Part shown: positions 5,733 to 37,050 of the stretch, in pieces
Layout of the letters: each line of letters begins with the position of its first letter
Numbering within the stretch: position 1 is the stretch's first letter
Assembly (NCBI GenBank): GCA_020428905.1
Contig: JAGQLY010000002.1
Span: forward strand, 1 to 63,726
Direction of reading: 5' to 3'
Source: Candidatus Kaiserbacteria bacterium
GTDB lineage: Bacteria > Patescibacteriota > Minisyncoccia > Phycocordibacterales > UBA918
DNA: 63,726 nucleotides
Program-made: the position numbers and the translations under genes
Notes under the pieces: generated by a model
What the model saw: the letters and a program-made list of their open reading frames with translations, nothing else
Database searches by the model: none
What the model was told of the DNA's origin: nothing

Positions 5733-5738
5733 CACTCT

Positions 5739-10409: not shown

Positions 10410-12371
10410 ATGGATCAACATTCGTATCTTGATGGACTTAATACCGAGCAGCGTGCCGCGGTAGAACATATCGAGGGACCGCTCTTGGTGCTTGCGGGAG
10501 CTGGCTCGGGGAAGACACGAGTGATCACCTATCGCATCATTCACCTCATAGAAAAAGGGGTTGCTCCACAGAATATCCTTGCTGTAACCTTCACCAACAA
10601 AGCCGCTGCCGAGATGCGTGAGCGGGTGCGTGAGCTTCTTGTACAGCACGCGCCTGCGGCGCGTGCTGTACAAGAAGCACTTCCTACCATTTCTACCTTC
10701 CACGCCCTTGGAGTACGCATGCTGCGCGAACAACATCATGCCCTCGGCCTCAAGAAACACTTCTCAATTTTTGATAAAAGTGACTCGTCGCGAACGGTGA
10801 AGCGTGCCCTCGAGGCAGCGGGATACAGCCCCAAACAATTTGAGCCGCGTAAAATCCTATCTCTTATCAGTCGCGCAAAAGGTGGCGGCCTCTCTCAAAC
10901 AGAGTACGCGGGGGGCACTCGTTCATATGTCGAACGTGTTGCTGCTGAGGTCTGGAAGCACTACGAACAGGCCCTCCGCGCAGAAGACGCGCTCGATTTT
11001 GACGACCTGTTGCTTAAAACATTTGATATGTTGCGCAGCCGCCCGAACATACTGGCACAGTATCGGGAGCGCTTCGCCTACGTACATATTGATGAGTACC
11101 AGGACACCAACACTGTGCAGTACGACATCGCGCGCCTTCTCGCGGGAGAAAAGCAAAACCTCTGTGTCGTTGGTGATGTCGATCAAAACATCTACTCGTG
11201 GCGTGGCGCTGACATCAAGAACATTTTGCAGTTCGAACGACATTTCCCGGGGGCTAAAATTGTTCTTCTGGAAGAAAATTATCGTTCGACACAGACCATC
11301 ATCGCGGCCTCAAATGACATAATTGAGAAAAATGTGAACCGTCCGGCAAAAACCGTCTTCACCAAAAACCAAGAAGGGGAACCACTATCGCTCTATGCTG
11401 CACTTGGGGGACAGGAGGAAGCTGAGCATGTCGCGCTTACCGCAAAAGACCTTATGAGAAGTGGTGCGTCCGCCTCGGATATTGCGGTACTGTTTCGAAC
11501 AAACTTCCAATCGCGTGCGCTCGAGGAGGCGTTCATCAACTTTGGTGTACCGTATCAGGTTTTGGGAACCCGATTTTTTGAGCGGAAAGAGATTAAGGAT
11601 ACTATTTCTTTTTTGCGCCTTGCACTCAACCCCCAGAGTGTCTCAGACCTCGTACGTGTCGTAAATATGCCACCGCGCGGTATCGGGAAGGTGACTGTAC
11701 TGAAACTTGTCGAGGGAAAGCGTGAGCTCATCACTGGAAAGACTGCAGAGAAAGTGGCGGTCTTTGAATCCTTAATGCGTGACATTGGCGAGATTGCCGT
11801 GACCAAGACCCTGGCCGAGACATTGAAATTCATCCTCACACGGAGCGGCCTTGAAGAACATCTCCGCAAAGATGGTGGGGAGGGCCTTGAACGCCTTGAG
11901 AACATTCGGGAATTGGTGACGCTTGCCTCACGTTATGCTGAGTACGATCACGAAGAGGCGCTGGAACGATTTCTTGAGGATGTTGCACTTCAAAGTGACC
12001 AGGACGAACTCAAAAGTAAGGAAGATCAAGACGCAGTCCGTCTCATGACAGTGCACGCCGCCAAAGGGCTCGAGTTTCCGTATGTATTCATCACCGGCCT
12101 TGAGGAAGGACTCTTTCCACACGAACGATTATCCGACCCGTCCGCCGGTCCAGCTGGAGACGTCGACACTGAGGAAGAGCGCCGACTCTTTTACGTCGCA
12201 CTCACCAGAGCCAAGAAAAAAGTCTTTCTTTCATTTGCACACATGCGTACCATTTTTGGCAGTCAGCGAGTCAATGTTCCCTCTTCTTTCTTGGGAGATA
12301 TCAGTGGTGATCTCATCCAGCACAACAATCCCTCCGAATCCGGATATGAAACTGCCATTTACCTCGACTAG
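10410..12371 (+). CDS. pcrA: UvrD/PcrA/Rep-family ATP-dependent DNA helicase
   Basis: LNTEQRAAVEH..LLVLAGAGSGKTRVIT, DEYQDTN, VGDVDQNIYSWRGA, TVHAAKGLEF, EEERRLFYVALTRAK. Confidence 0.9.
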   Translation: MDQHSYLDGLNTEQRAAVEHIEGPLLVLAGAGSGKTRVITYRIIHLIEKGVAPQNILAVTFTNKAAAEMRERVRELLVQHAPAARAVQEALPTISTFHALGVRMLREQHHALGLKKHFSIFDKSDSSRTVKRALEAAGYSPKQFEPRKILSLISRAKGGGLSQTEYAGGTRSYVERVAAEVWKHYEQALRAEDALDFDDLLLKTFDMLRSRPNILAQYRERFAYVHIDEYQDTNTVQYDIARLLAGEKQNLCVVGDVDQNIYSWRGADIKNILQFERHFPGAKIVLLEENYRSTQTIIAASNDIIEKNVNRPAKTVFTKNQEGEPLSLYAALGGQEEAEHVALTAKDLMRSGASASDIAVLFRTNFQSRALEEAFINFGVPYQVLGTRFFERKEIKDTISFLRLALNPQSVSDLVRVVNMPPRGIGKVTVLKLVEGKRELITGKTAEKVAVFESLMRDIGEIAVTKTLAETLKFILTRSGLEEHLRKDGGEGLERLENIRELVTLASRYAEYDHEEALERFLEDVALQSDQDELKSKEDQDAVRLMTVHAAKGLEFPYVFITGLEEGLFPHERLSDPSAGPAGDVDTEEERRLFYVALTRAKKKVFLSFAHMRTIFGSQRVNVPSSFLGDISGDLIQHNNPSESGYETAIYLD

Positions 12372-12779
12372 CTTTTACATCCGACCATTTTATCCGCGCT
12401 ACCCCACGCACACTGTTCCTGTACAATGCCGACGCACTGTTCTCAGTATACAAACCTCTTCATGGTCTATAACAGACACATTCTTGATCTTGATACTTAA
12501 TTGATACTTAATTTCTATTTTGTATTTCCTGTGTCGTACCGTGGCATCACAAAGTCAGACCTATAGGTCTGACGTTATGGTGCCACCTTTTCTATTTTTT
12601 ACTGATACAGCTGATCGAGGGACGGACAGTGTAGCCGTTCAGTGCTGTGAGGTCCGGTGGGGTGGGGTACCTAGTAGTATGGTTGGTCGGTGGCGTGGTT
12701 GATCGTGCTGAACAGTACTTACGCATCACTGCAGAACCGCTGCGCGGCGCAGAAAAATGCTATATAGTATCTCTGTTGT

Positions 12780-13595
12780 ATGGAAGAACGAGGCCGTATA
12801 CAAGCAAAGAAGTCTTTGGGGCAACACTTTCTTAACAATCCCCGTGTACCCGGGCGGATGGCTGATGCTGTCTCTGTAACCGCAGGTGACGTGGTGGTGG
12901 AAATAGGACCCGGGACTGGTGTACTCACCCGAACACTCCTTGACCGTGGCGCAACCGTTATCGCCATTGAGGCAGACGCTCGAGCTATTTCTATACTTGA
13001 GGAAGCGTTCCCTGTAGAGTGCAAAAACAAACAACTAACACTTATCCACGGCGATATTACCGACTACAATATCACCACGCTTCCTATAGCCGATCATCAC
13101 TACAAGGTGGTAGCGAACATTCCGTACTACCTCTCAGGGCTTTTATTTCGGAAATTCCTCGAAACGACTGTTCAGCCCTCTGATTTGGTGTTTTTGGTAC
13201 AAAAGGAGGTCGCCGAGCGGATAGTGCACGATCCTAAAGAGTCTCTCCTTTCTCTTTCAGTAAAAGTCTACGGCGCGCCGCGGTATGTGGAGAAAGTGGG
13301 AAAGGGGAATTTTTCTCCCGCCCCCAAGGTGGACTCAGCCATCATTGCCATATCTCACATTTCTCGAGACGCTTTTGCGAGTCGTAATCTCTCCGAGGAG
13401 GTCTTTTTTGACCTCCTGCACGTTGGTTTTGCCGCGCGCCGCAAGCAACTCCTCGGCAATCTTGCCGCTCGTTTTGATAGAGCAGTACTTATCCAGATCT
13501 TTTCCACACTCGACTTACCCACCGACATTCGCGGAGAAGATGTCTCGCCAGAAGCATGGCTTGATCTCGTTCGCCTTCTCACCACGCCGAACTAG
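12780..13595 (+). CDS. rsmA: 16S rRNA dimethyladenosine transferase RsmA/KsgA
   Basis: LGQHFLNNPRV, VVEIGPGTGVLT, VANIPYYLS. Confidence 0.9.
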   Translation: MEERGRIQAKKSLGQHFLNNPRVPGRMADAVSVTAGDVVVEIGPGTGVLTRTLLDRGATVIAIEADARAISILEEAFPVECKNKQLTLIHGDITDYNITTLPIADHHYKVVANIPYYLSGLLFRKFLETTVQPSDLVFLVQKEVAERIVHDPKESLLSLSVKVYGAPRYVEKVGKGNFSPAPKVDSAIIAISHISRDAFASRNLSEEVFFDLLHVGFAARRKQLLGNLAARFDRAVLIQIFSTLDLPTDIRGEDVSPEAWLDLVRLLTTPN

Positions 13596-13744: not shown

Positions 13745-14644
13745 GTGAAAGGGACCTTTAGTATAGGGGTAACAGCGTGTATGGCCGTACTTATTATCGG
13801 CGGAGCTTTTTATGTGAGTCGCAAATCCACCGAACATCTTACAGGGGTAGGCAGCAACACCACCCTAGTTTCGATTAAAAATGTTCCCTATACGGGCGAG
13901 CTTGATGCAAATGGCAACGGTACTCCTGACTGGGAAGAAGAGCTTTCAAAAAATGTCTTCGAAAAAATCGCCACCCCGGAGGAGTTAGTGAGTACCAGCA
14001 CCACCGACACCAGTTCACTTACCTATACCGACCGTTTCGCACGTTCGTTCTTTGAAGATTATTTCAATACCCAAACCGGAAACGCCATTCCACAGACGCA
14101 GGAGGAGTTTGTAAATCGGGCAGTAACAACGGTGGAGCGCGAGACTTCTGCACTTCGGTACACCCGCGCCGATGTGATAACGACCGACGACTCAGACGTA
14201 GCGATTCGTGCTTATGGAAACGCGGTGGGGGAGATTGTTCTCCGCAATTCCGCGGGTGGCAGTGATCACGAGCTCTTGATACTGCAGCGCGCAATGGAAG
14301 AACGAAATGCAGCAGTGCTTACTGAACTTCTCCCAATCCAGGGTGCCTATGAGGGGCTCGTTGCAGACGCCCGCGCACTCCCTGCGCCAGTATCGCTTGC
14401 CAACCAACACCGCGACCTCATTAATGCATTCGAAGCTCTTCGTGCCGATATTACGGCCATGCAACTCATATTTGACGATCCGCTCTATGCCTATGCGCGC
14501 CTCAAGCGCTATGACGCAGACGCAACAAATCTCTACACCGCGTTCTATACACTCTACTCTGCACTGACGGCACGGGGAGTCGTTTATGCGAGCGATGAGC
14601 CGGCGTACTTTTTATACATTTTTGATACTCCCTATACACCATGA
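13745..14644 (+). CDS. Hypothetical membrane-anchored protein; first gene of the T4SS-like operon
   Basis: GTG start and an N-terminal TM helix (ACMAVLIIGGAFYV). The stop overlaps the next gene's ATG (ATGA). No family recognised. Confidence 0.6.
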   Translation: MKGTFSIGVTACMAVLIIGGAFYVSRKSTEHLTGVGSNTTLVSIKNVPYTGELDANGNGTPDWEEELSKNVFEKIATPEELVSTSTTDTSSLTYTDRFARSFFEDYFNTQTGNAIPQTQEEFVNRAVTTVERETSALRYTRADVITTDDSDVAIRAYGNAVGEIVLRNSAGGSDHELLILQRAMEERNAAVLTELLPIQGAYEGLVADARALPAPVSLANQHRDLINAFEALRADITAMQLIFDDPLYAYARLKRYDADATNLYTAFYTLYSALTARGVVYASDEPAYFLYIFDTPYTP

Positions 14645-16128
14645 TGCAGTACCTTCGTACAACTGTTCTCAAATCCCTTCTTGCTTCCTTTATGGTTCTT
14701 GCCATGGTCATGGTGGTGTACAGCCCTTCAGCGCCGACAACACGTCATGCACAAGCAAAGTATCCAGTAATTGATGTTACCAACCTGAGTCAAAACATCA
14801 TCACCGCCATACAGACCGCCGGCAGCTACATTCTCGACGTGGCGAGAAATGTCTGGGCGTATGCAGATTACATCAAAGAATACCTCCTTGACCTCCTCAA
14901 CTGGGGACTGGTGAATCTCATCCTGGAAAAAATGATCGCCAGTGTGACCGATTGGGTCAACTCGGGATTTAATGGTAGCCCAGCCTTCGTGACCGACCTC
15001 AAACAATTTTTGGTTGATATCGCCGACGAAGAGTTTGGTAGGTTTATCGACGAGGAGCTGGGGCTGGGGATTCTCTGTTCGCCGTTTTCTATTGATGTGC
15101 GCCTTGCGCTTGAGATTGGTTACCAAGAGACCTTCCGCGAGAAAGCACAGTGTACACTCTCGGGCGTTATCGACAACGTACAAGGGTTCTTCGACGGCGA
15201 CTTCGCCTCAGGCGGCTGGGATGGATGGTTTAATGTCGTCACCAAGCCGCAAAACAACCCCTATGGCATACTTCTCACCGCGCAGAGCGAGGCCTCTATC
15301 CGCATCAAGAACGCAGAAGGGCGTGAGGTAAAGCTGCTTGACTTTGGTAAAGGGTTCCTCTCATTCAAAGATGAAAATGGCCAAATATCCACCCCGGGTA
15401 CCGTCGTCGAGGGCGTTCTTGAGACCCACCTCGGCATCCCTCCGGGACGGCTCACGGTCGCAGACGAAATTGACGAGCTTGTGGGAGCGCTCCTTGGGCA
15501 GCTCGTGAACGCTGTCTTTGGTACCGGCGGACTCCGCGGACTCTCATCGTCCGGCTACACCAACCGGCTCTACAACGACACGGGCGAACTGCCGCCAAGC
15601 CTCGTTGAGGGTGGGAATCTTGCGACCCAAATTGAAGTAAGTGTCTCCGATGAGGAAAACTACCGCACAGAACTATACCAGCTTATTGCAGTCGTTGAGG
15701 AGGCAGAAGTAGAGCTTCAAGAGTGGATCGATGAACGATGCGACATTGAGATACCTGAGTACTTCACAGAACTCAAGACCGACGCTGAGACAACTATCGC
15801 CGAGATAGACACACTCCTCGTGCGGCTCAACGACATACTTGCGCGCACCACATCACCCGACTCCGATATAGCAAAGCAGGCCTTCCAAGAGTACGGCAAC
15901 ATGCTTGCCCGACGCGAACTGCACCAAGAAGCGGCTGGTTTTAACATCAAATTCACCAACGAGATCTTGCCGAAGATATATGAAATCGTGGGAGAAGCCG
16001 GAGCAAGAGCACAAGACCGCCTGTATGTGCCGGAGCCGCAGCAAATAAATCTTATTCCGTACTGTGAGTGTGTAGCGAGCAATCCGGACGATAACCAGTG
16101 GCAGTGTGAGGCAATTCGCGCACGCTAG
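14641..16128 (+). CDS. Hypothetical exported protein of the T4SS-like operon; N-terminus reminiscent of TrbJ/VirB5
   Basis: Signal/anchor, then KYPVIDVTNLSQNIITAIQTAGS followed by helical sequence. The family link is from my recollection of the motif only. Confidence 0.65.
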   Translation: MMQYLRTTVLKSLLASFMVLAMVMVVYSPSAPTTRHAQAKYPVIDVTNLSQNIITAIQTAGSYILDVARNVWAYADYIKEYLLDLLNWGLVNLILEKMIASVTDWVNSGFNGSPAFVTDLKQFLVDIADEEFGRFIDEELGLGILCSPFSIDVRLALEIGYQETFREKAQCTLSGVIDNVQGFFDGDFASGGWDGWFNVVTKPQNNPYGILLTAQSEASIRIKNAEGREVKLLDFGKGFLSFKDENGQISTPGTVVEGVLETHLGIPPGRLTVADEIDELVGALLGQLVNAVFGTGGLRGLSSSGYTNRLYNDTGELPPSLVEGGNLATQIEVSVSDEENYRTELYQLIAVVEEAEVELQEWIDERCDIEIPEYFTELKTDAETTIAEIDTLLVRLNDILARTTSPDSDIAKQAFQEYGNMLARRELHQEAAGFNIKFTNEILPKIYEIVGEAGARAQDRLYVPEPQQINLIPYCECVASNPDDNQWQCEAIRAR

Positions 16129-16193
16129 TCGAGCTCCGCACGGCCACACGCACCGTATACGGGCAGCCCCGCAACAACACAGGAAATAGCACC

Positions 16194-18410
16194 ATGAATC
16201 CATCACACACACAACCACACACTAAACCATTCCTTGCGAGGGTGTGTGCGGCTGTGTTTGTGTCGCTTGTATTTTTGGGAGCCGCCGCCATACCGCTTCA
16301 CGCAAAGGCAGAGCTTACCGCAAGCGATGTAATTGCTGGCGCGGCGACAGGACTGGGAGCAACCCCTGTAGGCATAGCCCTCAAAGTGTTGTCCGACGGA
16401 AGCGGTGGTGCACCATCCTTCTGGTCCGATCCTGTAACCTGGTTTGGGTACCGTCTACTCACTCTCGGCGCAGTCATTGCCGGGCTTGGGGGTCAGTTGC
16501 TTGATATCACAATCTCCAAACTCATCCTAGAAATGCATAGCTATGTGGGCGACTCGTCAAGCGGAGTTGGGGGAGCAATCATCCAGGGATGGACTATCGT
16601 GAGAGACATTGCAAACCTTCTCTTTATATTTGGTTTTGTGTACATCGGTATCATGACCATCTTTGATTATGAGAGCGCTCAAACCAAAAAAACACTAGCG
16701 TCTATCATTATCGGCGCCATCCTCATCAATTTCAGTCTCTTCTTCACAAAGGTAATCATTGATGCCTCAAATATTCTGGCTGTAGAACTCCACCAAAAGA
16801 TGACCAACGATTCATCGATAAACATTGGTGAACAGCTCGCCCAGTTTCTTGGTATCAGCACCCTGTACCAAACACCACAGGACACGAACAAAATGATCGA
16901 GTACGCCAAGCCAGACGGGTTTTGGTTTTATGTTGTCGGGATGATCTTTCTTATGATTGCGGGGTACGTGCTCGCAGCCGGCGGCATTCTTATAATCATT
17001 CGCTTTGTTGCACTGGTGTTACTCATGATACTCTCGCCACTTCTGTTTGCTGCCGGCGTGTTCTCATTCTCCAAAAACGCCGCGCAGGACTTGTGGGGAA
17101 AGTTGATCAGTTATTCCTTCTTTGCTCCAGCGTACATGTTCATGTTGTATGCCACCATCCTGGTACTCACCGGCCTTCAAACAAGTATGGGTATCAGCGC
17201 AACAAATAATCTCGGACAAACGATGGCGGGGCTTGGGGAAGCGAACAATGGTTACAGTCCAGTACTCAATCTGTTTCTTGCATCGGGCTTTATCATTGCA
17301 GCACTTGCCATCGCTAAAAAATTGAGCATATACGGTGGAGACAAGTCTGTCTCGATGCTCCGAAATGGGGCCAGTAGTACCGGGAAGTTCCTTCGTAATG
17401 CGACTCTTGGAAACGCCAACAAATTGCGTCGTTCACTACAAAGCTATGCGGGGCGTAACACTATCGGCCGTGCCTCGGAAGCTCTTACAAAGAAAATCGA
17501 CGCCTTCGTTGCAAGCAATACCAAGGAGGGAACCAAGCCTTTTAAACGCGGCCTCGCTGCTGTCGCAGGAAGCAGGACCGTTCGTGGCACTGTAGCAAGC
17601 GGACAAAATGCAAAATTTGGCGGTTCATACTCGCACGCTGACAACCAAGCGTACGAGCGAGACCAGCGTAGTCGCAGTGCACGCATTCGCGAACAACAGG
17701 ACTTCGAACAAGCACTCGCTACTCACTCTGCAGCAATTGCAAGCGGGGACGCCGCCGCCATACAGGCAGCGGAGCGAGAGGTGCAGCGCATGGCCGAAAA
17801 GGCGTCGGTCGCTATGCTCTCCGAGCTTTCTACCGAGCAACTTAAACAGGCTGCAGGATTTCTTTCTGATGCACAAATCGAGGGTGTAGCAAAGGCAGCG
17901 AGTAATGACGCTCAAACACGTGAGGTTAAGGAGGCTCGCAGCAAAAAGCTCCAAGAAATTTACCGGAACGACTCTAAAGCTCTTGGGAAAGCGAGCGTGG
18001 AGCATCTCGCTGCTCTTGGTAACGAATTTCTTAGGGCTAATGCGCAGCACTTGAATTCGAAGCAAATGGAGGGCTTGCAAGCAAGGCTACCGTCTGGTGA
18101 ATTTGGTGATCTTGATACAGAAAGAACCCGTCGACTTACCCGTGAAACTCGTGATTTCCTTCTGGACCGTAAGGAGTCGGAGGTGGCAAAACTTCCATTT
18201 GACGTCCTTAAAAAGCTTGGTGTCGGAGGCATCTCTACCGGCGTACTTTCTCAAATCGCCGCCGGCGGCAACCTTAATCAAAAACAACAAAAAGAACTCA
18301 AAGATATGGTCATGCGACATGTTCAGGCCACCGGCACCGCCGAAGAACAGCAACGTTACGACGACTGGTTCAAAACTGATCGTGTTGGCCAACATTTCGG
18401 AAGAGGCTAG
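16194..18410 (+). CDS. TrbL/VirB6-like polytopic membrane protein with a roughly 330-aa hydrophilic C-terminal tail
   Basis: Signal peptide, then at least six hydrophobic helices (e.g. IANLLFIFGFVYIGIMTIF, IIIRFVALVLLMILSPLLFAAGVF, FFAPAYMFMLYATILVLTGL). The tail is rich in Ala, Gln, Lys, Glu and Arg. Confidence 0.65.
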   Translation: MNPSHTQPHTKPFLARVCAAVFVSLVFLGAAAIPLHAKAELTASDVIAGAATGLGATPVGIALKVLSDGSGGAPSFWSDPVTWFGYRLLTLGAVIAGLGGQLLDITISKLILEMHSYVGDSSSGVGGAIIQGWTIVRDIANLLFIFGFVYIGIMTIFDYESAQTKKTLASIIIGAILINFSLFFTKVIIDASNILAVELHQKMTNDSSINIGEQLAQFLGISTLYQTPQDTNKMIEYAKPDGFWFYVVGMIFLMIAGYVLAAGGILIIIRFVALVLLMILSPLLFAAGVFSFSKNAAQDLWGKLISYSFFAPAYMFMLYATILVLTGLQTSMGISATNNLGQTMAGLGEANNGYSPVLNLFLASGFIIAALAIAKKLSIYGGDKSVSMLRNGASSTGKFLRNATLGNANKLRRSLQSYAGRNTIGRASEALTKKIDAFVASNTKEGTKPFKRGLAAVAGSRTVRGTVASGQNAKFGGSYSHADNQAYERDQRSRSARIREQQDFEQALATHSAAIASGDAAAIQAAEREVQRMAEKASVAMLSELSTEQLKQAAGFLSDAQIEGVAKAASNDAQTREVKEARSKKLQEIYRNDSKALGKASVEHLAALGNEFLRANAQHLNSKQMEGLQARLPSGEFGDLDTERTRRLTRETRDFLLDRKESEVAKLPFDVLKKLGVGGISTGVLSQIAAGGNLNQKQQKELKDMVMRHVQATGTAEEQQRYDDWFKTDRVGQHFGRG

Positions 18411-18438
18411 CTTGATATAAAATAGTTTATATTTGCAT

Positions 18439-19122
18439 ATGTATACTTTCGAAGAACGAATGGAGCGATACTTGCAGTTGGATCCCGCATTTCAACATCT
18501 TTATTCGTCTGTCGAAAGTGCCGCCTTTAATGCACGTCTCATTGAGATGTATGACATTCAGGACTTCGGCCCCTTCATCGACGCTATTGGAGACGTGATA
18601 CTCGGCTTTTATCGAAAAAGCGAGTTGTCAAAGCTGCTTACACAAACGGTTGGACTGTCAGAAGAGGTGGTTGCACGTATGTTGCCTGAGATCGACACCT
18701 TCCTCAGACCAATCCCCGGGACACTGTCGAAAATGGAGGTGTTGCAACAAGAACGGGGGTCGGAGAGTGTGGTGCGACAACCGCTCGAAGGAATTGCCAC
18801 TCCCGCGTATACACCACAGGCGGTCGAAGTTTCGCCTATACCCCCAACACCCCCCCCAGCCACCGCGCCACACACACCGACACCTGCCGCAAAAGAGGTG
18901 GTGGTGCCGCGTCAGCCAGCTGCCGCGCCGAAAGAACGACTCGCTTTTTGGCCGGACGGCACTCCCAAGCAGCCGCCACGTACGGTACCGCCGCCACAGT
19001 CGCCGAACACGGACACTGCCCGCCCACTCACCCGCAATGAACTTATGGCCTCGCTCTCTCCACGACGCACCATGGCAGAAGATGTTGCTCGCGCACAACA
19101 CACCACACAGCAAGACTCCTAG
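18439..19122 (+). CDS. Hypothetical protein with Pro-rich C-terminal half (T4SS-like operon)
   Basis: In-operon ORF. The ORF track opens at TTG 18433, and the first ATG is at 18439. PIPPTPPPATAPHTPTPAAKEVVVPRQPAAAP. No family recognised. Confidence 0.55.
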   Translation: MYTFEERMERYLQLDPAFQHLYSSVESAAFNARLIEMYDIQDFGPFIDAIGDVILGFYRKSELSKLLTQTVGLSEEVVARMLPEIDTFLRPIPGTLSKMEVLQQERGSESVVRQPLEGIATPAYTPQAVEVSPIPPTPPPATAPHTPTPAAKEVVVPRQPAAAPKERLAFWPDGTPKQPPRTVPPPQSPNTDTARPLTRNELMASLSPRRTMAEDVARAQHTTQQDS

Positions 19123-19182
19123 CCCGCACTAATCCGCACCATACGGGTTGGGATTCTCACATATGCGGTACAATAGAAGTGT

Positions 19183-19605
19183 ATGCGATTTGAAGTGCCG
19201 CAGTTCATTGATGTGGAGGACAAGATCTTCGGACCCTTCACTTGGAAGCAGTTCGTGTACCTCGCCGGAGGCGCAGGAGCCGCGGTAATGCTCTTTATCG
19301 TGCTCCCGTTTTTCTTTTTTCTTCTCATTGGCGGACCGATTATCGCGCTCGCGGTTTTCCTGGCATTTCATCAAGTAAATAACCGACCCTTTTCCGCCTT
19401 TCTGGAATCATTTGTACACTATACGACACGGAAGAAACTCTATCTTTGGAAACGTGCCGAGGTGCAGCGGGTGACAGGGGAGGAGCGCGTGGTGGTACCT
19501 GAACAATCATACCAACCGGAATCTATCCCGACCGGAACCGGCGGCATCACCGCACTTTCAAGTAAACTGGAGCTTAATACTCTCGAACCCGAAACACCCG
19601 AATAA
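19183..19605 (+). CDS. PrgI-family (VirB3-like) small membrane protein
   Basis: MRFEVPQFIDVEDKIFGPFTWKQFVYLAGGAGAAVMLFIVLPFFFFLL is the characteristic PrgI N-terminus followed by two TM helices. It lies directly upstream of the VirB4 module. Confidence 0.75.
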   Translation: MRFEVPQFIDVEDKIFGPFTWKQFVYLAGGAGAAVMLFIVLPFFFFLLIGGPIIALAVFLAFHQVNNRPFSAFLESFVHYTTRKKLYLWKRAEVQRVTGEERVVVPEQSYQPESIPTGTGGITALSSKLELNTLEPETPE

Positions 19606-19608
19606 TAT

Positions 19609-20229
19609 ATGCCTGCAAAAAACGCCACACAAGATTTTGTTCAAATACGAGATATCAAAGATGGTATCGCGATTTTGGACAGTGGCCAGCTCTGTGCAAT
19701 TTTACTTGCAACCTCGGTCAACTTCACCTTGAAATCTGTCGAGGAGCAGCAAGCAATTCTCGCGCAGTTCCAGGCCTTTCTCAATACACTCGACTTTTCC
19801 CTCCAAATATACGTGCAGTCACGCCGGCTCGATATCCGTCCCTACATAGAGATGCTCCGCACCAAAGAAGCGGACCAGTACAACGACCTCATGAAAATCC
19901 AGCTCCGTGAATATATGGAGTTTATCGAGACGTTTACAAATGAGGTCGATATCATGTCGAAAAACTTTTTCGTAGTTGTACCATATACACCCGGAGTAAC
20001 CGTCAGCGGTATCACCAAATTCTTAGGCGCAAACAAGACCAAGGCGGGCGCCTTCGACTCAAAAAAGTTTGCCGAGGACCGCAGCCAGTTGGAGCAGCGC
20101 ATCACGTTGGTCGAGGAAGGGCTTGCTCGTACCGGCATCCGCACAACCATGTTGGGGAACGATGAAGTAATTGAGCTCTTTTATCATATCTTTAACCCTG
20201 AGGACCTTTCCAAGGCACCGAAACAATAG
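19609..20229 (+). CDS. Hypothetical protein resembling a stand-alone VirB4 N-terminal domain
   Basis: 206 aa, 3 nt after the PrgI-like gene and 5 nt before virB4. Its block pattern (IKDGIAILDSGQLCAILLATSVNF ... LDFSLQIYVQSRRLD ... KNFFVVVPY) parallels residues about 40-170 of the next ORF. Confidence 0.6.
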   Translation: MPAKNATQDFVQIRDIKDGIAILDSGQLCAILLATSVNFTLKSVEEQQAILAQFQAFLNTLDFSLQIYVQSRRLDIRPYIEMLRTKEADQYNDLMKIQLREYMEFIETFTNEVDIMSKNFFVVVPYTPGVTVSGITKFLGANKTKAGAFDSKKFAEDRSQLEQRITLVEEGLARTGIRTTMLGNDEVIELFYHIFNPEDLSKAPKQ

Positions 20230-20234
20230 TACGT

Positions 20235-22040
20235 ATGGGACTTCTTGATTTACTCAAACGCAAAAAAGCTGCTGCCGAAAAACAATCCGAGCAGACAGCA
20301 GCCGACCAAGCGGGAATGTCGCTTCCTGACGTTATTGCTCCATCGGCAATCAATATCACCCCGCGCAGTATCAATGTAAGCGGGAAGCTTTCTCGTGTCC
20401 TCTTTGCAGTTTCGTATCCGCGCTATCTCAACGATGGCTGGCTGGAGCCCATCCTCAATATTGAAAAAGAAATCGACGTCTCGATTGTGGTACATCCCAT
20501 CGATACCAAAGACACGCTCAAAAAATTCCAAAAAAAGGTGGCTGAGGTGCAGAGCCAGATCAATATCAGGGACGAAAAGGGTATGGTGCGCGACCCTCAA
20601 CTTGATGCCGCCTACCGCAACCTCGAAGACTTGCGCGACAAGCTTCAGCAAGCGGAAGAGCGGCTCTTCAATGTGGGGCTGTATATCGCCATTTACGGTG
20701 ATACCGAGGCCGACATCAACAAAACCGAGGCGGAAATTAAAGGGGTGCTCGACGCACGACTCATTTACCTTAAGCCGGCAACCTTCCAACAAGAGCAGGG
20801 TTTTCAAAGTGTCCTCCCCATAAACACAGATGAGCTTTTGGTACACAGCAAGTTCAACTCGTCACCTCTCTCAAGCTTCTTTCCATTCACCTCCTTCGAC
20901 CTCACTTCAAACAACGGTATCCTCTACGGCATTAACCGACACAATTCTTCACTTATTCTTTTTGACCGCTTCTCCCTTCCCAACTATAACTCCGTAACCT
21001 TCGCAACCTCGGGTGCAGGCAAGTCATACATGGCGAAGCTCGAGATTCTGCGGTCGCTCATGTTTGGTACGGAGGTGATCGTCATTGACCCAGAACGGGA
21101 ATTCGAGTATCTCGCCGAGGCCACCGGTGGTCGCTTCTTCAACATTTCACTTTCTTCAAACCACCACATCAACCCATTTGACCTTCCTATGCCACAAGCA
21201 GACGAGGATCCGGCCGACCTACTCCGCTCACACATCACCGAGCTTGTGGGATTGTTTCGTCTTATGCTCAAAGGACTTACCCCGGAGGAAGACTCCATCG
21301 TCGACCAAGCACTCCGAGAAACATACGCCCTCAAGGACATCACCGGAGAAACCGACTACTCCGGCCTTGAGCCGCCACTCCTTTCTGACTTCGAAATGGT
21401 ACTCGCGGGTATGGAGGGAAGCGAGTCGTTGGTTCAGCGACTTACCAAATACACCAGCGGAACGTGGTCAGGATTTCTTAACGAGCCCTCCAATGTCGAT
21501 ATCAACCAACGCTTTGTAGTGTTCTCACTTCGCGACATGGAGGATGAGCTCAAGACTATCGCGATGTATATCGTCACCAAACACATCTGGAGTTCGATAC
21601 GCCGAGAACTCAAGCGGCGCCTCCTCGTTATTGACGAGGCGTGGGTCATGATGAAATACGAAGAAACCGGAAATTTCCTCCACGGACTCGCAAAACGCGG
21701 CCGTAAATACTACCTAGGAATTGCAACCATTACCCAGGATGTGGACGACTTCTTGCGCTCACCCTATGGCGTACCGATGATTACCAACTCCTCGATACAG
21801 ATTTTGATGAAACAATCGAAGACGTCCGTTGATACCCTACAAGAAGTTTTTGGTCTTACCAATGAAGAGAAGATGGTGTTGCTACAATCAGGGGTGGGGG
21901 AGGGGATCTTCTTCGCGGGCCTCAAACACGTTGCAGTCAAAGTCATCGCGTCCTATACCGAGGATCAGATTATCACTTCAGACCCCTCACAACTTCTTCA
22001 GATCAAACAAAACCGTGAGGCACTTAAGAGTGGTGGGTAG
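20235..22040 (+). CDS. virB4: VirB4/TrbE/TraC-type T4SS ATPase
   Basis: 601 aa. Walker A (FATSGAGKSYMAK), Walker B (RRLLVIDEAWVMM), and GRKYYLGIATITQDVDDF. Confidence 0.9.
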   Translation: MGLLDLLKRKKAAAEKQSEQTAADQAGMSLPDVIAPSAINITPRSINVSGKLSRVLFAVSYPRYLNDGWLEPILNIEKEIDVSIVVHPIDTKDTLKKFQKKVAEVQSQINIRDEKGMVRDPQLDAAYRNLEDLRDKLQQAEERLFNVGLYIAIYGDTEADINKTEAEIKGVLDARLIYLKPATFQQEQGFQSVLPINTDELLVHSKFNSSPLSSFFPFTSFDLTSNNGILYGINRHNSSLILFDRFSLPNYNSVTFATSGAGKSYMAKLEILRSLMFGTEVIVIDPEREFEYLAEATGGRFFNISLSSNHHINPFDLPMPQADEDPADLLRSHITELVGLFRLMLKGLTPEEDSIVDQALRETYALKDITGETDYSGLEPPLLSDFEMVLAGMEGSESLVQRLTKYTSGTWSGFLNEPSNVDINQRFVVFSLRDMEDELKTIAMYIVTKHIWSSIRRELKRRLLVIDEAWVMMKYEETGNFLHGLAKRGRKYYLGIATITQDVDDFLRSPYGVPMITNSSIQILMKQSKTSVDTLQEVFGLTNEEKMVLLQSGVGEGIFFAGLKHVAVKVIASYTEDQIITSDPSQLLQIKQNREALKSGG

Positions 22041-22045
22041 CATCT

Positions 22046-22816
22046 ATGACATACAATACCGCACAAAAAGCCAAACGTGATTCGAACCACTCTGGAGTTC
22101 GAAATACGCGCATGCACAGAACACAACCGGAACAGGAAGGGGGTATTTTTTCAGCATTTGCCGCAAATGATCCGGGATATATCGATGCGCCCCTAGAAAC
22201 AAATATCGAACGGGGTATTCGAAACACAAACATTCGTTTTGCTAAAGCAGCACAGGGCAGACTTTTACAAGAGCACCTCCAAAATACCCACAAGAGACTC
22301 CTGCAAGACCAGGCGGCTGAACAAATTACACAATACGCCGCATCAGAAGACATTGCCCGAACAGCAGAACAAATGGTGAGTGTCACCGCAAGGACGAGTG
22401 TGGCACGGCAGGCGACGGCAGTCCGCCAAAAGGAGAACAACAAAGCAGCAACACGAAGTCACCTGTCGGGGCCTGTGTTCTGGTTTATTGTTGCCTTAGC
22501 GGTGCTCAAAGACCTCCTTGACGTAATTTTTACTCTTACGATTCTGCTCTCTATATTTTCTTCTGTGTTCGCGGTTTTGGTCTCCCTCATCATACTTCTC
22601 TACCTTAGCTTCAGTGGGGTACCTTTGACCATACGTAAGGCGGTGTCCTTTTTTGTCACACTCCTGATTGAGTTCATACCTTTTATTTCATTTCTCCCGC
22701 TCGCAACGATCAACCTCTTTCTAATCCGTCACTTTGATAGGATGGAAAAGGGCCAAAAGAGTATAGTGCCTAAATTCATGCCACAACAACTCAGGGCGCC
22801 TATGCAACGACTATAA
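22046..22816 (+). CDS. Hypothetical membrane protein (T4SS-like operon)
   Basis: Hydrophilic, Gln/Arg-rich N-terminal half, then three or four TM helices (VFWFIVALAVL, LLSIFSSVFAVLVSLIILLYL, FFVTLLIEFIPFISFLPLATI). Confidence 0.6.
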   Translation: MTYNTAQKAKRDSNHSGVRNTRMHRTQPEQEGGIFSAFAANDPGYIDAPLETNIERGIRNTNIRFAKAAQGRLLQEHLQNTHKRLLQDQAAEQITQYAASEDIARTAEQMVSVTARTSVARQATAVRQKENNKAATRSHLSGPVFWFIVALAVLKDLLDVIFTLTILLSIFSSVFAVLVSLIILLYLSFSGVPLTIRKAVSFFVTLLIEFIPFISFLPLATINLFLIRHFDRMEKGQKSIVPKFMPQQLRAPMQRL

Positions 22817-22849
22817 CTTTTCGCTTAGAACCTATGCTAAGCTAATAGT

Positions 22850-23845
22850 ATGCGGGTTGTGACCTCATTACAGTTTGATATTTCGTTTTTTTGTGTCTTT
22901 TTGTTCCTATTTTTCTGCCTTACCCCCCCTGCAGACGCACAAACTATCAATCCCACCTCGTTTTCTAACACGAGCTTGAGTATTTCACCTTCCGCACCAG
23001 CACCCTACCAAGACGTGGCAGCAAAGCTGCAGCTCTTCGCACTCGACACCACAAACGCAACGATTGAGTGGTTTGTGGACGGAGTCAAACAACCAGAACA
23101 CACTAACGATCGCAGTCTGCCCCTCACAACAGGGCCGCTTGGCTCCTCGCAGGTCGTTACCGCCACCATTACACGACCGGACTCACTTTTTCCACAAGAA
23201 CTCACCACAACAGTCACCCCCTCAATTGTTGATCTCATTGTAGAAGGAGAGACACGTACTCCACACTTTTATACTGGGCGAGCGCTACCGAGTGCGGGCA
23301 GTACTGTGCGCGTGAGTGCCATACCCTTTGTGGGGGAAATAACGCATCCTGAAAACTACACCTACAAGTGGACATTGGGCACCACGGTACTTCTTGGCGG
23401 ACCGGCTCGCGGGAAAAATTCCGTCGAAATCGAGATGCCAAAATACTCAGCAACCAATCTCATCGTTGAGGTCTTCGACCAAAACAACACTCTGGTAGGG
23501 AAAAACAAAACCACACTCAAAGCCACAAACCCTGAGGTCCACTTCTATTCATACTCATTTCTTGGTGGCCCTCATTCAGTAGCGTTAGACGCAGGACTTA
23601 TGCTCACTTCGGATGAAACACCTGTTGTGGCCGAACCTTATTTCTTTTCAAACACCCTCGCTCGTACCAACACAACGATCGAGTGGAAAGTCAATGGGTC
23701 CCCGATAGCCCCCAACACGGAACACCCGCTTCGGGTTACCATCGCTCGTACCGGAGGTTCGGGGGAAAGTACGCTTAGTATACGAATTATCAACATGGAA
23801 ACATTACTTCAAAATGCCCAGTCGTTAGTTACGGTATCATTTTAA
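22850..23845 (+). CDS. Hypothetical secreted protein (T4SS-like operon)
   Basis: Signal peptide (FFCVFLFLFFCLTPPADA), then a beta-rich sequence. No family recognised. Confidence 0.6.
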   Translation: MRVVTSLQFDISFFCVFLFLFFCLTPPADAQTINPTSFSNTSLSISPSAPAPYQDVAAKLQLFALDTTNATIEWFVDGVKQPEHTNDRSLPLTTGPLGSSQVVTATITRPDSLFPQELTTTVTPSIVDLIVEGETRTPHFYTGRALPSAGSTVRVSAIPFVGEITHPENYTYKWTLGTTVLLGGPARGKNSVEIEMPKYSATNLIVEVFDQNNTLVGKNKTTLKATNPEVHFYSYSFLGGPHSVALDAGLMLTSDETPVVAEPYFFSNTLARTNTTIEWKVNGSPIAPNTEHPLRVTIARTGGSGESTLSIRIINMETLLQNAQSLVTVSF

Positions 23846-23852
23846 AGAACCT

Positions 23853-24563
23853 ATGACACAAAACACCTTAGTGAGAAGCGCTACACACACCCTCTGGTGT
23901 CTCTTCGTTGTGGGGGTCCTCCTATCCTTTGCAACCACCGCAGCAGCACAAGGATCGGGCGGATACGTACCCCTCGCAGGCATCCCCGGGGTGACCGACC
24001 AGCCGGATCTGGTTTCATATATAAACGCGCTCTATATGCTCACCATCAGTGTGGGTGGGCTCTATGGAGTTATTAAAATAGCAATCGCGGGGATTAAGTG
24101 GTCGGTGAGTGATGTGGTAACCGATAAATCAGATGCAAAAAAAGGCGTGTACGGGGCACTCCTCGGACTTGCAATCTTACTCTCTACGTATGTGGTACTT
24201 AACACTATCAACCCACAACTAACGAATTTGAATATTTTCGGTCGTGCGACAGAGATTCCACCACCCGCGCCGGTGGCAGGGGCCAATCTCCAACCTGGGC
24301 AGACATGCCTCAATCAGGCATGTACTGGTGTCACTAAGGACACCTCGAACTTTGACTTTGCCTCGGGACAACGCACAGAGTCCTTTAGTGCAGCGGACTT
24401 TGGTGCTGGTGGTACTGCACCAGCACGGACCGCCACATTTATAGAAAACTGCAAAAACTGGGATGGTTCTCGCGGCTCGATCAAAACCACAACAACCGGT
24501 GGTACCATAAGCTATACCTGTACATTCGAGGGATCCACCCCCAAAACCAAAACTGGTTCATGA
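23853..24563 (+). CDS. VirB2/TrbC-like T4SS pilin with a C-terminal 4-Cys extension
   Basis: Signal peptide ending AAAQG, then two hydrophobic helices separated by a short charged loop (LYMLTISVGGLYGVIKIAIAGI ... KKGVYGALLGLAILLSTYVVLNTI). About 100 extra residues follow, containing four Cys. Confidence 0.5.
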   Translation: MTQNTLVRSATHTLWCLFVVGVLLSFATTAAAQGSGGYVPLAGIPGVTDQPDLVSYINALYMLTISVGGLYGVIKIAIAGIKWSVSDVVTDKSDAKKGVYGALLGLAILLSTYVVLNTINPQLTNLNIFGRATEIPPPAPVAGANLQPGQTCLNQACTGVTKDTSNFDFASGQRTESFSAADFGAGGTAPARTATFIENCKNWDGSRGSIKTTTTGGTISYTCTFEGSTPKTKTGS

Positions 24564-25792
24564 AAAAAAAGATATTCATCAGCATTGCAATTGTTCTCCT
24601 CCTCGTCGCTGTCGCGTTGTGGGGATACCTTTTCTTCGTAAAGCCGCCGGCTGGGAACGGCGACCTCTCGGGGCTTCCTATCGGTGGTAGTTCGGGTGCG
24701 TCCTCGGAACAGGACGCCAATAGAGCCGGTGGGAATGAACAAAGCACCACAACTATTCTCCCCAAGCCGCTCCGCCAACTCACCACCCGCGCGGTTGCTG
24801 GAGCAACTTTTACCGAAAGTGGTGTCCGCTTCATGGAGCGGGGCACCGGACACATTTTCGATATTAACCTCCTTACTGGAGCTGAAACACAAGTGACTAA
24901 TACGACTCTCGCCGGTGTGGTGACCGCAGATTTTTCTCCGAGTACCAACCGAGTCCTCTTTGGTGTCCCGCAAGACGACACCGCCTCTTTCTCCGTTGGC
25001 ACCATTACTCGTGGAGACGACGGTGGAGGTACTGTGACCGGTTTTGGACTTCCTACAGGAGCACACGAGGTGGCCTTTACCCCGTCTGGGGAAGCAGTAT
25101 TTTATGTGCTTGATGGCGCAAACGGTGCGGTGGGATACCAGTACACCATAGCGAGCGAGGCAAGTGAGCAGCTCTTCTCGGTACCGATACGAGATATACG
25201 TGTTCTGTGGGGAAACGCTATCTACGTATATCCAGCACCAACTGCTGCACAACCGGGGTCTGTGTACCGAGCGCGAGGAGACACACTCGAATACGTGACC
25301 GGCAGTGCATACGGCCTTACTGCTACTGCATTTACTGGTGGGCTTGTGGTCTCATACACTGACAGTGCCTCACAGTGGGGTGTCGGTACATATATAAAAA
25401 TTGGTACAAGCACCCAACCACTTGGGATCCCACTTCTTGCTGACAAGTGTGCACAACAAGCTTTGGGAGATTCTGTGCTCTACTGTGCAGCAACACCCTC
25501 CCCCGAGAGGGGTACCTACCCGGACGACTGGTATAAAGGCCTCGTTTCCTTCGACGACGCCCTTTGGGAACTCGCACCCTCCGCGGGAAGTGCGCTCTTG
25601 TTGAGTAATTTTAAAGAAGAGAGTGGGCGACAAATCGATGCAACAAAACTAGTCACCGACAGAGCAGGAGAACGCATCTCCTTCATAAACAAAATCGATA
25701 CTACTTTGTGGATATTTGATACCACACTGGTAGTACAACCAACAACCGATACAGGGAACGCTGCAAGCTCGACAGAATCAGCAACAAACTAA
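24560..25792 (+). CDS. Hypothetical membrane-anchored extracytoplasmic protein; last gene of the T4SS-like operon
   Basis: The ATG overlaps the preceding stop. N-terminal TM helix (IFISIAIVLLLVAVALWGYLFF), followed by a Gly/Thr/Ser-rich, beta-like sequence. Confidence 0.6.
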   Translation: MKKKIFISIAIVLLLVAVALWGYLFFVKPPAGNGDLSGLPIGGSSGASSEQDANRAGGNEQSTTTILPKPLRQLTTRAVAGATFTESGVRFMERGTGHIFDINLLTGAETQVTNTTLAGVVTADFSPSTNRVLFGVPQDDTASFSVGTITRGDDGGGTVTGFGLPTGAHEVAFTPSGEAVFYVLDGANGAVGYQYTIASEASEQLFSVPIRDIRVLWGNAIYVYPAPTAAQPGSVYRARGDTLEYVTGSAYGLTATAFTGGLVVSYTDSASQWGVGTYIKIGTSTQPLGIPLLADKCAQQALGDSVLYCAATPSPERGTYPDDWYKGLVSFDDALWELAPSAGSALLLSNFKEESGRQIDATKLVTDRAGERISFINKIDTTLWIFDTTLVVQPTTDTGNAASSTESATN

Positions 25793-26538
25793 TTTCGTGT
25801 TGGGGTCTTAAGGCCTTTATGACGCACAAGGTATTCCTGTCCGATTGCCACAAGATTACTCACCGCAAAATAAAGTGCAATCGCTGCCGAAATACTATAC
25901 GCCACCATAAAGACAATCACCGGCATGACATAGCGCATCTGGAGGTTCATACTGCGGGCAAGGTCTTCTTTGAAGTTTTGCCCCGCATTTGGATCGCGCG
26001 GGGTGTGCTTGGGAAGCGTAAGGTTGGTGTGTATATACTGGGTAACTCCTGCAAGTAGTGCGAGTGGGATGCTGCGCGTAGTGATATCGAGGAGACCAAG
26101 AAAAAGGAGATTGATGGTCTCAGGAGAAGGGATGAACGAGTAGAGGAGGGCAACATTTACATCTGGGAGTGGTACGCCACCGCCACGATATACCGCAAGA
26201 TAGAGTGCTATCACAACGGGAATTTGTATAAAGAGAAGTAGGATGCTTGAAAAAGGATTCACCCCCGCATCTTTATACAAAGCAAGCATGTGTTGTGCCA
26301 TTTCCTCTCGTTTGTCTTTGTATTTTTCACGGATCTCTTTGAGCTTCGGTTCGATCATACGCATCGCAAGCTGAGTACGAGCCGCTTTAAATGAGAGGGG
26401 GAGTAGTACCAACTTCACCAACACCACCGTACACACAATCGCGAGTCCCACATCACCCCCGGGAAGTGCGTCAATAAAAAAAATAAGACTGTTGTAAATT
26501 GGATCAAAAAAAATGGTGTGCCAGAGTGAATTAAACAT
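25789..26538 (-). CDS. yidC: Membrane protein insertase YidC (short form)
   Basis: GLAIVCTVVLVKLVLLPLSFKAARTQLAMRMIEPKLKEIREKYKD...MLALYKDAGVNPF. Confidence 0.9.
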   Translation of the reverse strand: MFNSLWHTIFFDPIYNSLIFFIDALPGGDVGLAIVCTVVLVKLVLLPLSFKAARTQLAMRMIEPKLKEIREKYKDKREEMAQHMLALYKDAGVNPFSSILLLFIQIPVVIALYLAVYRGGGVPLPDVNVALLYSFIPSPETINLLFLGLLDITTRSIPLALLAGVTQYIHTNLTLPKHTPRDPNAGQNFKEDLARSMNLQMRYVMPVIVFMVAYSISAAIALYFAVSNLVAIGQEYLVRHKGLKTPTRN

Positions 26539-26550
26539 AATGGGATCATT

Positions 26551-26874
26551 TTACCGTGCCTTTGCGGCACTTCCAAGTAATTGTTGTACTTCGGATGCGA
26601 GTTCCAAAAAGGTGTGTGTCGCGCTCTGTGGTTTCGCTATAACGATATACACTCCACCTGTTGGTTGGAATGTTTGTATTAGGGAGTAGAGGCGTCTCCG
26701 CAGATGATTACGCATCACTGCCGATCGAGCAACTTTTTTTGATACCACAACCGCAACGCTGAGCCCAATCGCCTTTGTGTATACAAGTGTGAGTGAGGGT
26801 GAGTGAAGTCGCTTTCCTAAAGAAAAAAAGCGACTGAACTCTTTCGTACTCAATCGTTCTTTTTTCCGCACCAT
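26551..26874 (-). CDS. rnpA: RNase P protein component
   Basis: 107 aa, basic. VVVSKKVARSAVMRNHLRRRL. Lies between rpmH and yidC as in the canonical cluster. Confidence 0.85.
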   Translation of the reverse strand: MVRKKERLSTKEFSRFFSLGKRLHSPSLTLVYTKAIGLSVAVVVSKKVARSAVMRNHLRRRLYSLIQTFQPTGGVYIVIAKPQSATHTFLELASEVQQLLGSAAKAR

Positions 26875-27132: not shown

Positions 27133-27214
27133 TTTTCCACAGACTATACACAACACTCTTGTGTAATCCGCTTATTTTTTGCCGTGCTGTGTGTGTTGTT
27201 TACAGTTTTCCACA
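27133..27214. promoter_or_regulatory. DnaA-box-like 9-mers in the rpmH-dnaA intergenic region
   Basis: TTTTCCACA occurs at 27133-27141 and 27206-27214, and CTATACACA at 27144-27152. Each differs from the TTATCCACA/TTATACACA box by one position. Confidence 0.55.
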
Positions 27215-27257
27215 GGTCGGTATAATTCTTGCTATTGTGCGTAATGATCTTCATTCT

Positions 27258-37005: not shown

Positions 37006-37050
37006 AAAAACAAAAGCCGTCGGTTGCACCTGCAACCGACGGCTTTTGTT
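37006..37050. terminator. Bidirectional terminator at the pilB 3' end
   Basis: A-run, GCCGTCGGTTGC-ACCT-GCAACCGACGGC, then a T-run. Confidence 0.85.

Follow-up and report, generated by a model that had tools for sequence, protein, structure and literature searches.

A relaxase-less type IV secretion system of the patescibacterial kind, predicted beside dnaA in Candidatus Kaiserbacteria

What kind of machine is encoded when genes of a type IV secretion system (T4SS) lie close to the chromosomal dnaA gene, with no recognisable DNA-transfer proteins around them? This question is raised by an operon at positions 13745-25792 of contig JAGQLY010000002.1 (63,726 nucleotides, assembly GCA_020428905.1), the whole of which is referred to here as the window. 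Judged from its gene content and position, the operon almost certainly encodes the chromosomal, relaxase-less T4SS characteristic of Patescibacteria, in this case in Candidatus Kaiserbacteria (class Paceibacteria). The system is derived from the MPF-FATA conjugation machinery of single-membrane bacteria and has ceased to belong to a mobile element. It has already been described (PMC12102498; PMC10633639); the locus is real and was correctly read in the original prediction, which had been made from the DNA letters without database searches, and it is not of a new kind. The non-conjugative role that we infer for it is also the one inferred in the literature. The guess of a patescibacterial episymbiont agrees with the deposition of identical proteins under Candidatus Kaiserbacteria. 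The small additions made here are the split between TrsD and VirB4 with its fused relatives, the fold calls for two accessory proteins (ORF9 and ORF11) and an extended pilin-domain protein.

The operon consists of eleven co-directional open reading frames (ORFs) on the plus strand:

13745-14644, plus strand: ORF1, accessory protein, 299 aa
14641-16128, plus strand: ORF2, accessory protein, 495 aa
16194-18410, plus strand: ORF3, predicted extended VirB6/TrbL-like protein, 738 aa
18433-19122, plus strand: ORF4, 229 aa
19183-19605, plus strand: ORF5, predicted PrgI family protein, 140 aa
19609-20229, plus strand: ORF6, predicted TrsD-like protein, 206 aa
20235-22040, plus strand: ORF7, predicted VirB4 ATPase, 601 aa
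22046-22816, plus strand: ORF8, predicted polytopic membrane protein, 256 aa
22850-23845, plus strand: ORF9, protein with predicted Ig-like repeats, 331 aa
23853-24563, plus strand: ORF10, protein with a predicted VirB2-like pilin domain, 236 aa
24560-25792, plus strand: ORF11, predicted membrane-anchored beta-propeller, 410 aa

The distances between consecutive genes, from ORF1 to ORF11, are -4, 65, 22, 60, 3, 5, 5, 33, 7 and -4 nt, in keeping with the tight packing first described (gaps of 65 nt or less, or overlaps). The NCBI annotation of the identical contig contains the same genes: ORF2 is KC727_00085 (MCA9363611.1), ORF11 is KC727_00130, and the locus tags, which run in steps of five, leave space for exactly eight genes between them. 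ORF7 is deposited as MCA9363616.1.

The identification is anchored by ORF7, a predicted VirB4 ATPase of the monoderm CD1110, or MPF-FATA-like, type. It passes the NCBIfam model conju_CD1110 with 371.6 bits (cut-off 325) and matches Pfam P-loop_TraG with 92 bits. The two nucleotide-binding motifs cited in the original prediction were located at residues 257-264 (Walker A, ATSGAGKS) and 463-470 (Walker B, LLVIDEAW); a VirB4-family ATPase in which both are intact is a feature by which a T4SS is recognised. Among solved structures, the VirB4 C-terminal domain 4AG5 is the best relative (E 6e-40), and TrwK of R388 comes next. An FtsK/HerA reading, which had been named as the outcome that would speak against a VirB4, was rejected: DUF87 gives 27 bits against the 371.6 bits of CD1110, and the best relative in the PDB is a VirB4. 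More than 8000 homologues of ORF7 were found, the nearest of them (77-83% identity) in Paceibacteria. The nearest VirB4 relatives, at 60-83% identity, all come from Paceibacteria/Parcubacteria genomes, and the best model is that of the monoderm CD1110 family. The name given to the product by NCBI is 'conjugal transfer protein TraC'.

The VirB4 of this operon is split into two genes. The alignment of ORF7 starts at position 172 of the CD1110 model, whose positions 2-102 are matched by ORF6; the latter also matches the NCBIfam models for the N-terminal part of VirB4_plasma (E 5.7e-10) and for TrsD (2e-6). Its relatives, 2,177 representatives in a library-wide search, are mostly stand-alone proteins of 200-350 aa. 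Two fused relatives are informative: residues 7-214 of P0332 (797 aa) and 11-212 of P0365 (898 aa) align to ORF6, and ORF7 is matched by the rest of each protein (52% and 47% identity, respectively). Because ORF6 and ORF7 each align to a separate part of these fused proteins, ORF6 is read as a TrsD-like, detached N-terminal domain of VirB4. A frameshifted pseudogene was ruled out as the origin of the split, since an ORF6-type protein is kept as a separate ORF beside virB4 in 64 related loci and TrsD is known as a family in its own right. A TrsD-like protein encoded next to virB4 is one of the features by which the Patescibacteria T4SS has been described (PMC12102498).

Other T4SS subunits are recognised around this ATPase. 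ORF5 scores 39.8 bits on PF12666 (cut-off 27) and is thereby assigned, as had been proposed, to PrgI, a family of VirB3-like membrane proteins that partner VirB4. A PrgI protein is encoded in 63 of the 69 related loci that were compared, where, with few exceptions, its gene directly precedes those of TrsD and VirB4. ORF3 is best described as an 'extended VirB6', a predicted TrbL-like polytopic membrane protein with six hydrophobic segments. Its match to TrbL/VirB6 (PF04610) is barely above the cut-off (26.0 versus 25.9 bits), and the same model is matched by 12 of 37 ORF3 orthologues. The original prediction of a TrbL/VirB6-like polytopic protein stands, with a correction for the charged hydrophilic tail, which measures about 360 aa and not about 330. 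PrgI/VirB3-like and VirB6-like proteins near virB4 are also part of the published description (PMC12102498).

The VirB2-like pilin that had been proposed is borne out through its relatives. The T4SS_pilin score of ORF10 itself (PF18895, 14.2 bits) is under the cut-off of 26.6, and 24 of its 30 positional orthologues match the model, with a best E of 1.3e-8; it is thus by way of the orthologues that a VirB2-like pilin gene is recognised near virB4. The predicted pilin domain covers residues 57-118, approximately; the C-terminal extension behind it measures about 115 aa and contains Cys. Orthologues within the clade have C-terminal extensions of 110-280 aa, which in three relatives are of hydrolase type, matching VanY (E 1.6e-9), Peptidase_M15_4 (E 7.8e-16) and, weakly, SLT (orthologues at L039:6251-8053, L019:4637-6109 and L065:13719-14672; the N-termini of the two longest ORFs are perhaps over-extended by the ORF caller). 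The pilin gene lies either before or after ORF11 in the related loci.

The statements that follow, on components missing around the operon, cover the 63.7 kb window, in which the larger ORFs were scanned with Pfam or NCBIfam. No relaxase, no VirD4/TcpA-type coupling protein, no VirB11 and no VirB8, VirB9 or VirB10 was detected in the operon or in the rest of the window. The claim that all DNA-transfer components are lacking is therefore upheld for this stretch of DNA only. There is no second T4SS-type ATPase, the P-loop proteins of the window other than VirB4 being all housekeeping proteins, and no P-loop was found in the unexplained proteins of the window. The coupling protein and relaxase that define a conjugative MPF-FATA system are thus both undetected over the 63.7 kb, whereas the missing relaxase and the place near dnaA, dnaN, rnpA and ksgA fit the patescibacterial T4SS. 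A conjugative MPF-FATA cluster also contains a VirB8-like protein of NTF2 fold and a VirB1-like hydrolase; neither had a sequence or profile match among the operon proteins, ORF1 being compared by sequence only.

Some genes elsewhere in the window touch on these components. A LysM and Peptidase_M23 protein is encoded 3.7 kb upstream of the operon on the other strand (9021-10040, minus strand); it is a possible stand-in for a VirB1-type hydrolase, a role that has been suggested in the literature for such proteins. Type IV pilus genes are present, with a PilB-type ATPase (T2SSE and MshEN domains, 37049-38761, minus strand), which is not a VirB11, and PilM (59685-60785, plus strand). A DksA/TraR-type zinc-finger protein followed by a ComM/YifB-like ATPase of the Mg-chelatase family (5352-7259, plus strand) look like housekeeping or competence-related genes outside the T4SS.

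Signs of mobility were equally sought. The Pfam scan of the larger ORFs found no integrase in the window. The nearest tRNA is at 43120, none lying within 17 kb of the operon, and an Rfam scan of the window returned four tRNAs and nothing else. No bounding repeats were found beyond chance: the sole flanking repeat, with 16/17 matches, is made up of 17-nt copies at 12719 and 26708; about 0.7 such pairs would be expected by chance according to our own estimate, and the right copy lies inside the rnpA ORF. The G+C content of the operon is similar to that of its surroundings, with no compositional break. The integrase, the attachment repeats or tRNA target and the patchy distribution expected of an integrative and conjugative element (ICE) are thus not seen, in line with the original prediction of an operon bounded by no integrase, tRNA or repeats. 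An ICE was rejected on these grounds and on the constancy of the locus, which occupies the same place in 38/38 relatives.

This constancy emerges from a comparison with 69 related loci, found by scanning a single genome for each species; they belong to Kaiser-, Nomura-, Campbell-, Wolfe- and other Paceibacteria. Both virB4 and dnaA are present in 38 of these loci, and all 38 have the genes in the canonical order and orientation: rsmA, ORF1, ORF2, VirB6, PrgI, TrsD, VirB4, ORF9, ORF11, yidC (minus strand), rnpA (minus strand), dnaA, dnaN. The rsmA gene lies upstream of the operon in 39 loci. VirB4 identity across the 38 loci is 60-82%. The median identities to the window proteins are as follows:

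VirB4: 66%
DnaA: 56%
UvrD: 53%
TrsD: 52%
YidC: 44%
RsmA: 44%
PrgI: 42%
DnaN: 37%
Accessory proteins (ORF1, ORF2, VirB6, ORF9, ORF11): 26-33%

VirB4 outranks DnaA in 29 of the 38 loci, in a set that was retrieved with VirB4 peptide patterns and therefore favours conserved VirB4 sequences. Because the order is fixed in 38/38 loci and VirB4 is better conserved than DnaA, the operon bears the signature of an ancient core locus, inherited vertically and strongly constrained, and not that of a mobile element. The proposal of a core chromosomal rather than conjugative locus is thus strengthened by the synteny of the 38 Paceibacteria loci.

In the window, the operon lies between rsmA and yidC, as originally read, with 149 nt from the end of rsmA to the start of ORF1 and 1.37 kb from the end of ORF11 to the start of dnaA, close to the 1.3 kb first estimated. 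Its neighbours are:

10410-12371: UvrD/PcrA helicase, left of rsmA
12780-13595, plus strand: rsmA/ksgA, left neighbour (PF00398, E 6e-43)
25789-26538, minus strand: yidC
26551-26874, minus strand: rnpA
27159-28637, plus strand: dnaA
28893-29987, plus strand: dnaN

DnaA-box-like sites are found around dnaA, at 27133, 27206, 28789 and 28839. Promoter and terminator scans gave counts no higher than the shuffled expectation. The uvrD-rsmA interval (12371-12780) is a 400-nt gap without a convincing ORF, with a 24-nt palindrome at 12541-12586 and no Rfam match; within the UvrD/PcrA coding region, at 10634-10678, two 21-nt arms form a perfect inverted repeat around a 3-nt loop. Transcription of the operon is directed towards yidC and dnaA, both in the window and in 38/38 relatives. 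The sign of the GC skew flips near 25.5 kb in the window, from which the operon would be head-on to replication. The relatives show no consistent GC skew, and a head-on orientation is not claimed.

The closest match among described systems is the Paceibacteria arrangement reported by Quinonero-Coronel et al. in 2025 (PMC12102498). VirB4 was found in 2,417 of 3,035 Patescibacteria genomes, nearly always within one clade nested in MPF-FATA; TrsD, PrgI/VirB3, VirB6 and VirB2-like pilins are encoded nearby, and dnaA, dnaN, rnpA, ksgA and rpmH are frequent neighbours of the virB4 locus in Paceibacteria and Microgenomatia. Relaxases were detected in just 103 of the 3,035 genomes, seldom close to virB4. 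The authors proposed that the system has been repurposed for a function other than conjugation, possibly import. The window has the same core set (VirB4 with adjacent TrsD, PrgI/VirB3, VirB6 and a VirB2-like pilin, and no relaxase), at the same chromosomal place relative to ksgA (rsmA), rnpA, dnaA and dnaN and in the same host class. There is no essential difference; calls are added here for ORF8, ORF9, ORF11 and the extended pilin, which are unannotated neighbours in that work.

The only member of this group with functional data is the T4SS of Southlakia epibionticum (SEML1_0004-0019), which was shown by transposon sequencing (Tn-seq) to be essential for epibiotic growth, its pilin array included (Wang et al. 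2023, PMC10633639). That cluster lies beside dnaA, dnaN and recF, and neither a coupling protein nor a relaxase was recognised in it (PMC10633639). It shares with the window an origin-proximal place and VirB4, TrsD-like, PrgI, extended VirB6-like and VirB2-like pilin proteins. On the other hand, the Southlakia cluster encodes six short pilins in tandem and a pair of VirB6-like proteins, along with an NTF2-like (VirB8-like) protein, a protein with a lysozyme domain and another of 1,113 aa. The window has one extended pilin-domain protein and one VirB6, with no NTF2-like or lysozyme gene found in the operon, and ORF1, ORF2, ORF9 and ORF11 instead.

The conjugative MPF-FATA systems (Trs of pGO1/pSK41, Prg of pCF10, CD1110 of CTn2) resemble the window locus in their VirB4, which passes the CD1110 model here, in PrgI and in lacking an outer-membrane core (VirB7/9/10), and pGO1 also has a separate TrsD-like N-domain. 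In contrast to them, neither a relaxase nor a coupling protein was detected in the window locus, nor a VirB8-like protein or dedicated hydrolase. A VirB2-like pilin, absent from the Gram-positive systems, is present in the window locus, which is chromosomal and, as argued above, vertically inherited, whereas the conjugative systems are borne on plasmids or ICEs. Helicobacter ComB, archaeal Ced, Bordetella Ptl and Brucella VirB are likewise T4SS-related, work without relaxase and VirD4, and serve DNA uptake or protein export. They differ in being diderm or archaeal and in their other accessory subunits, and they show no specific sequence kinship with the window locus beyond the shared VirB4 fold. 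The Patescibacteria systems are placed in a 2025 review as a new branch of the T4SS superfamily (PMC12857230).

Six or seven of the products had been described as belonging to no recognisable family. This holds for ORF1, ORF2 and ORF4, but ORF6, as TrsD, ORF9 and ORF11 can now be given a family or fold. ORF11 is predicted, with a model to support it, to be a membrane-anchored beta-propeller: an N-terminal transmembrane helix and a disordered linker precede a propeller with an invariant Cys pair. Its AlphaFold2 model has a predicted local distance difference test score (pLDDT) of 89.4 and a predicted template modelling score (pTM) of 0.80. Foldseek retrieves generic propellers, including TolB and tricorn (E 1e-7), with a profile match to TolB (E 1e-4), and a peptidoglycan-binding domain (PG_binding_1) is found in some homologues. 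ORF9, with a signal peptide, repeated Ig-like domains and a profile match to the Hoc Ig-like domains of 3SHS (E 1.6e-5), is a predicted secreted or surface Ig-repeat protein, and it is found in 50 of the 69 loci. Ig-like domains occur elsewhere in the window, in a 991-aa protein (48574-51549, plus strand; N_BRCA1_IG and CARDB) that may be a surface adhesin and follows a 527-aa ORF without family match (46984-48567, plus strand).

ORF8 has a charged N-terminal half and four to five C-terminal hydrophobic segments. No matches were obtained by tblastn against the related loci; a multi-transmembrane ORF nevertheless follows virB4 directly in many of them, at the ORF8 position, and an iterative search connects 29 of 39 positional equivalents, which is weak evidence for a hydrophobic protein. 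ORF8 is thus read as a fast-evolving polytopic membrane protein conserved mainly by position. ORF2 starts with a signal peptide or anchor and is then all-alpha; its central region (WVNSGFxGSPAFVTD...) is strongly conserved, and helices form a bundle at the C-terminus. Its AlphaFold2 model has a pLDDT of 67.5, residues 330-460 being above 90; the Foldseek search returned generic helical bundles only (E above 0.4), with no match to the TraC fold (1R8I, a three-helix bundle plus an appendage), and nothing relevant came from a profile search of the PDB. Weak N-terminal similarities to TrbJ of the VirB5 family (24.7 bits versus 286, E 1e-5) and DUF4141 (16 bits versus 30, E 0.0075) are far under the cut-offs, DUF4141 being matched by 7 of 92 homologues. 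In view of these scores, of the medium-confidence model and of the missing fold match, a VirB5 identity is not claimed, and 'VirB5-like' is a lead for ORF2, not a result. ORF1 has one N-terminal hydrophobic segment, beyond which its domain is probably extracytoplasmic, and a conserved DxDxDGxxDWxE-like motif. It has no Pfam, NCBIfam or PDB profile match, and 25 related loci have a counterpart in the corresponding place. ORF4, a small N-terminal domain with a proline-rich tail, is poorly conserved (detected in 6 of the 69 loci) and has no family match in Pfam or NCBIfam.

What could such a machine do? In the T4SSs that have been studied, VirB2, VirB3, VirB4 and VirB6 form an inner-membrane module for pilus assembly, and the coupling protein is required for substrate transfer but not for pilus biogenesis, as in Agrobacterium VirB and R388. 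Because this module is present and the coupling protein is dispensable for pili, the gene content fits the assembly of a pilus or surface structure better than DNA export. A coupling-protein-independent assembly of such a structure for host contact is thus put forward tentatively. The cytoplasmic-membrane core comprises TrsD-like ORF6 with the ATPase body ORF7, PrgI (ORF5) and the VirB6-like channel or platform (ORF3). Envelope proteins specific to the lineage are encoded with it, namely ORF8, ORF9, ORF11 and two exported or anchored proteins without an assigned fold, ORF1 and ORF2. VirB4, docked on PrgI and VirB6, would pull the pilin-domain protein (ORF10) out of the membrane, and this protein would then be polymerised, or at least displayed, as a pilus-like surface structure. 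The Ig-like (ORF9) and propeller (ORF11) proteins could aid contact with the envelope of the host cell, and perhaps its breach. Taken as a whole, identity together with pilus-based host contact is probably the best explanation of the locus.

The same core might also run in reverse and take up host DNA, nucleotides or other macromolecules, as ComB and Ced do, both of which share with the window locus the lack of a relaxase and a coupling protein, undetected here. Patescibacteria are indeed without nucleotide synthesis, import is favoured by the authors of PMC12102498, and in Southlakia a comEC deletion is viable and the T4SS is essential (PMC10633639; PMC12857230). However, no ComB- or Ced-specific DNA-binding or channel component was found, and the weak similarity to CedB (38.9 bits, far under the cut-off of 700) corresponds to generic P-loop similarity. 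With T4SS-dependent uptake having no experimental evidence in any patescibacterium, an import machine appears unlikely. A variant is quite improbable in our opinion: a host-piercing organelle in which the pilin is a carrier displaying its C-terminal domains (cell-wall hydrolases of the VanY/M15 and SLT types in some relatives), the propeller and Ig-repeat proteins open the host envelope, and the VirB4/VirB6 core imports host DNA, nucleotides or lipids. If true, it would mean that a T4SS is run as an essential feeding device.

Delivery of proteins into or onto the host, again without a coupling protein and in the manner of Brucella VirB or Bordetella Ptl, is improbable as well. Protein-secreting T4SSs of this sort exist (PMC12857230), protein export was offered as an option by Wang et al. 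(PMC10633639), and the signal-peptide proteins ORF2 and ORF9 are co-encoded. Yet the operon and its immediate neighbours include no recognisable gene for an effector, a toxin or immunity, and export by Sec takes proteins of a single-membrane cell all the way to the outside, which leaves no obvious role for a Ptl-like second step. As for conjugation itself, the locus might be the mating-pair-formation part of an active or decaying ICE, with relaxase and coupling protein outside the window, and the CD1110 match of VirB4 and its NCBI name are what one would expect of it. Such an origin is hardly credible beside a location between rsmA and yidC/dnaA that is identical in 38/38 loci from several candidate orders, a VirB4 more conserved than DnaA, the missing integrase, tRNA, attachment repeat and compositional break, and the scarcity of relaxases near patescibacterial virB4 genes (PMC12102498).

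Several points weigh against the preferred explanation, a relaxase-less T4SS assembling a structure for host contact. VirB8-like and VirB1-like components were not found in the operon. The scores of the window proteins are themselves weak for the pilin and for VirB6, as given above, and the 115-aa extension leaves polymerisation of the pilin-domain protein questionable. Retrieval of the loci through VirB4 peptides inflates the comparison of VirB4 with DnaA. Matches to VirD4 profiles occur in most Patescibacteria genomes, mostly far from virB4 (PMC12102498), and a VirD4-like ATPase may lie elsewhere in this genome, beyond the window. Essentiality is known from one Saccharibacterium only, whose accessory genes differ (PMC10633639), and no experiment exists for Paceibacteria.

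The patescibacterial T4SS is among the few conserved and apparently essential surface machines in a group that forms a large share of uncultivated bacteria. The window provides a clean example from Paceibacteria, its eleven genes standing in a fixed order, and three leads for structural or genetic work can be drawn from it: the split of VirB4 with its fused relatives, the C-terminal extension of the pilin-domain protein, which is a hydrolase in some relatives, and the propeller and Ig-repeat proteins as candidate host-contact parts.

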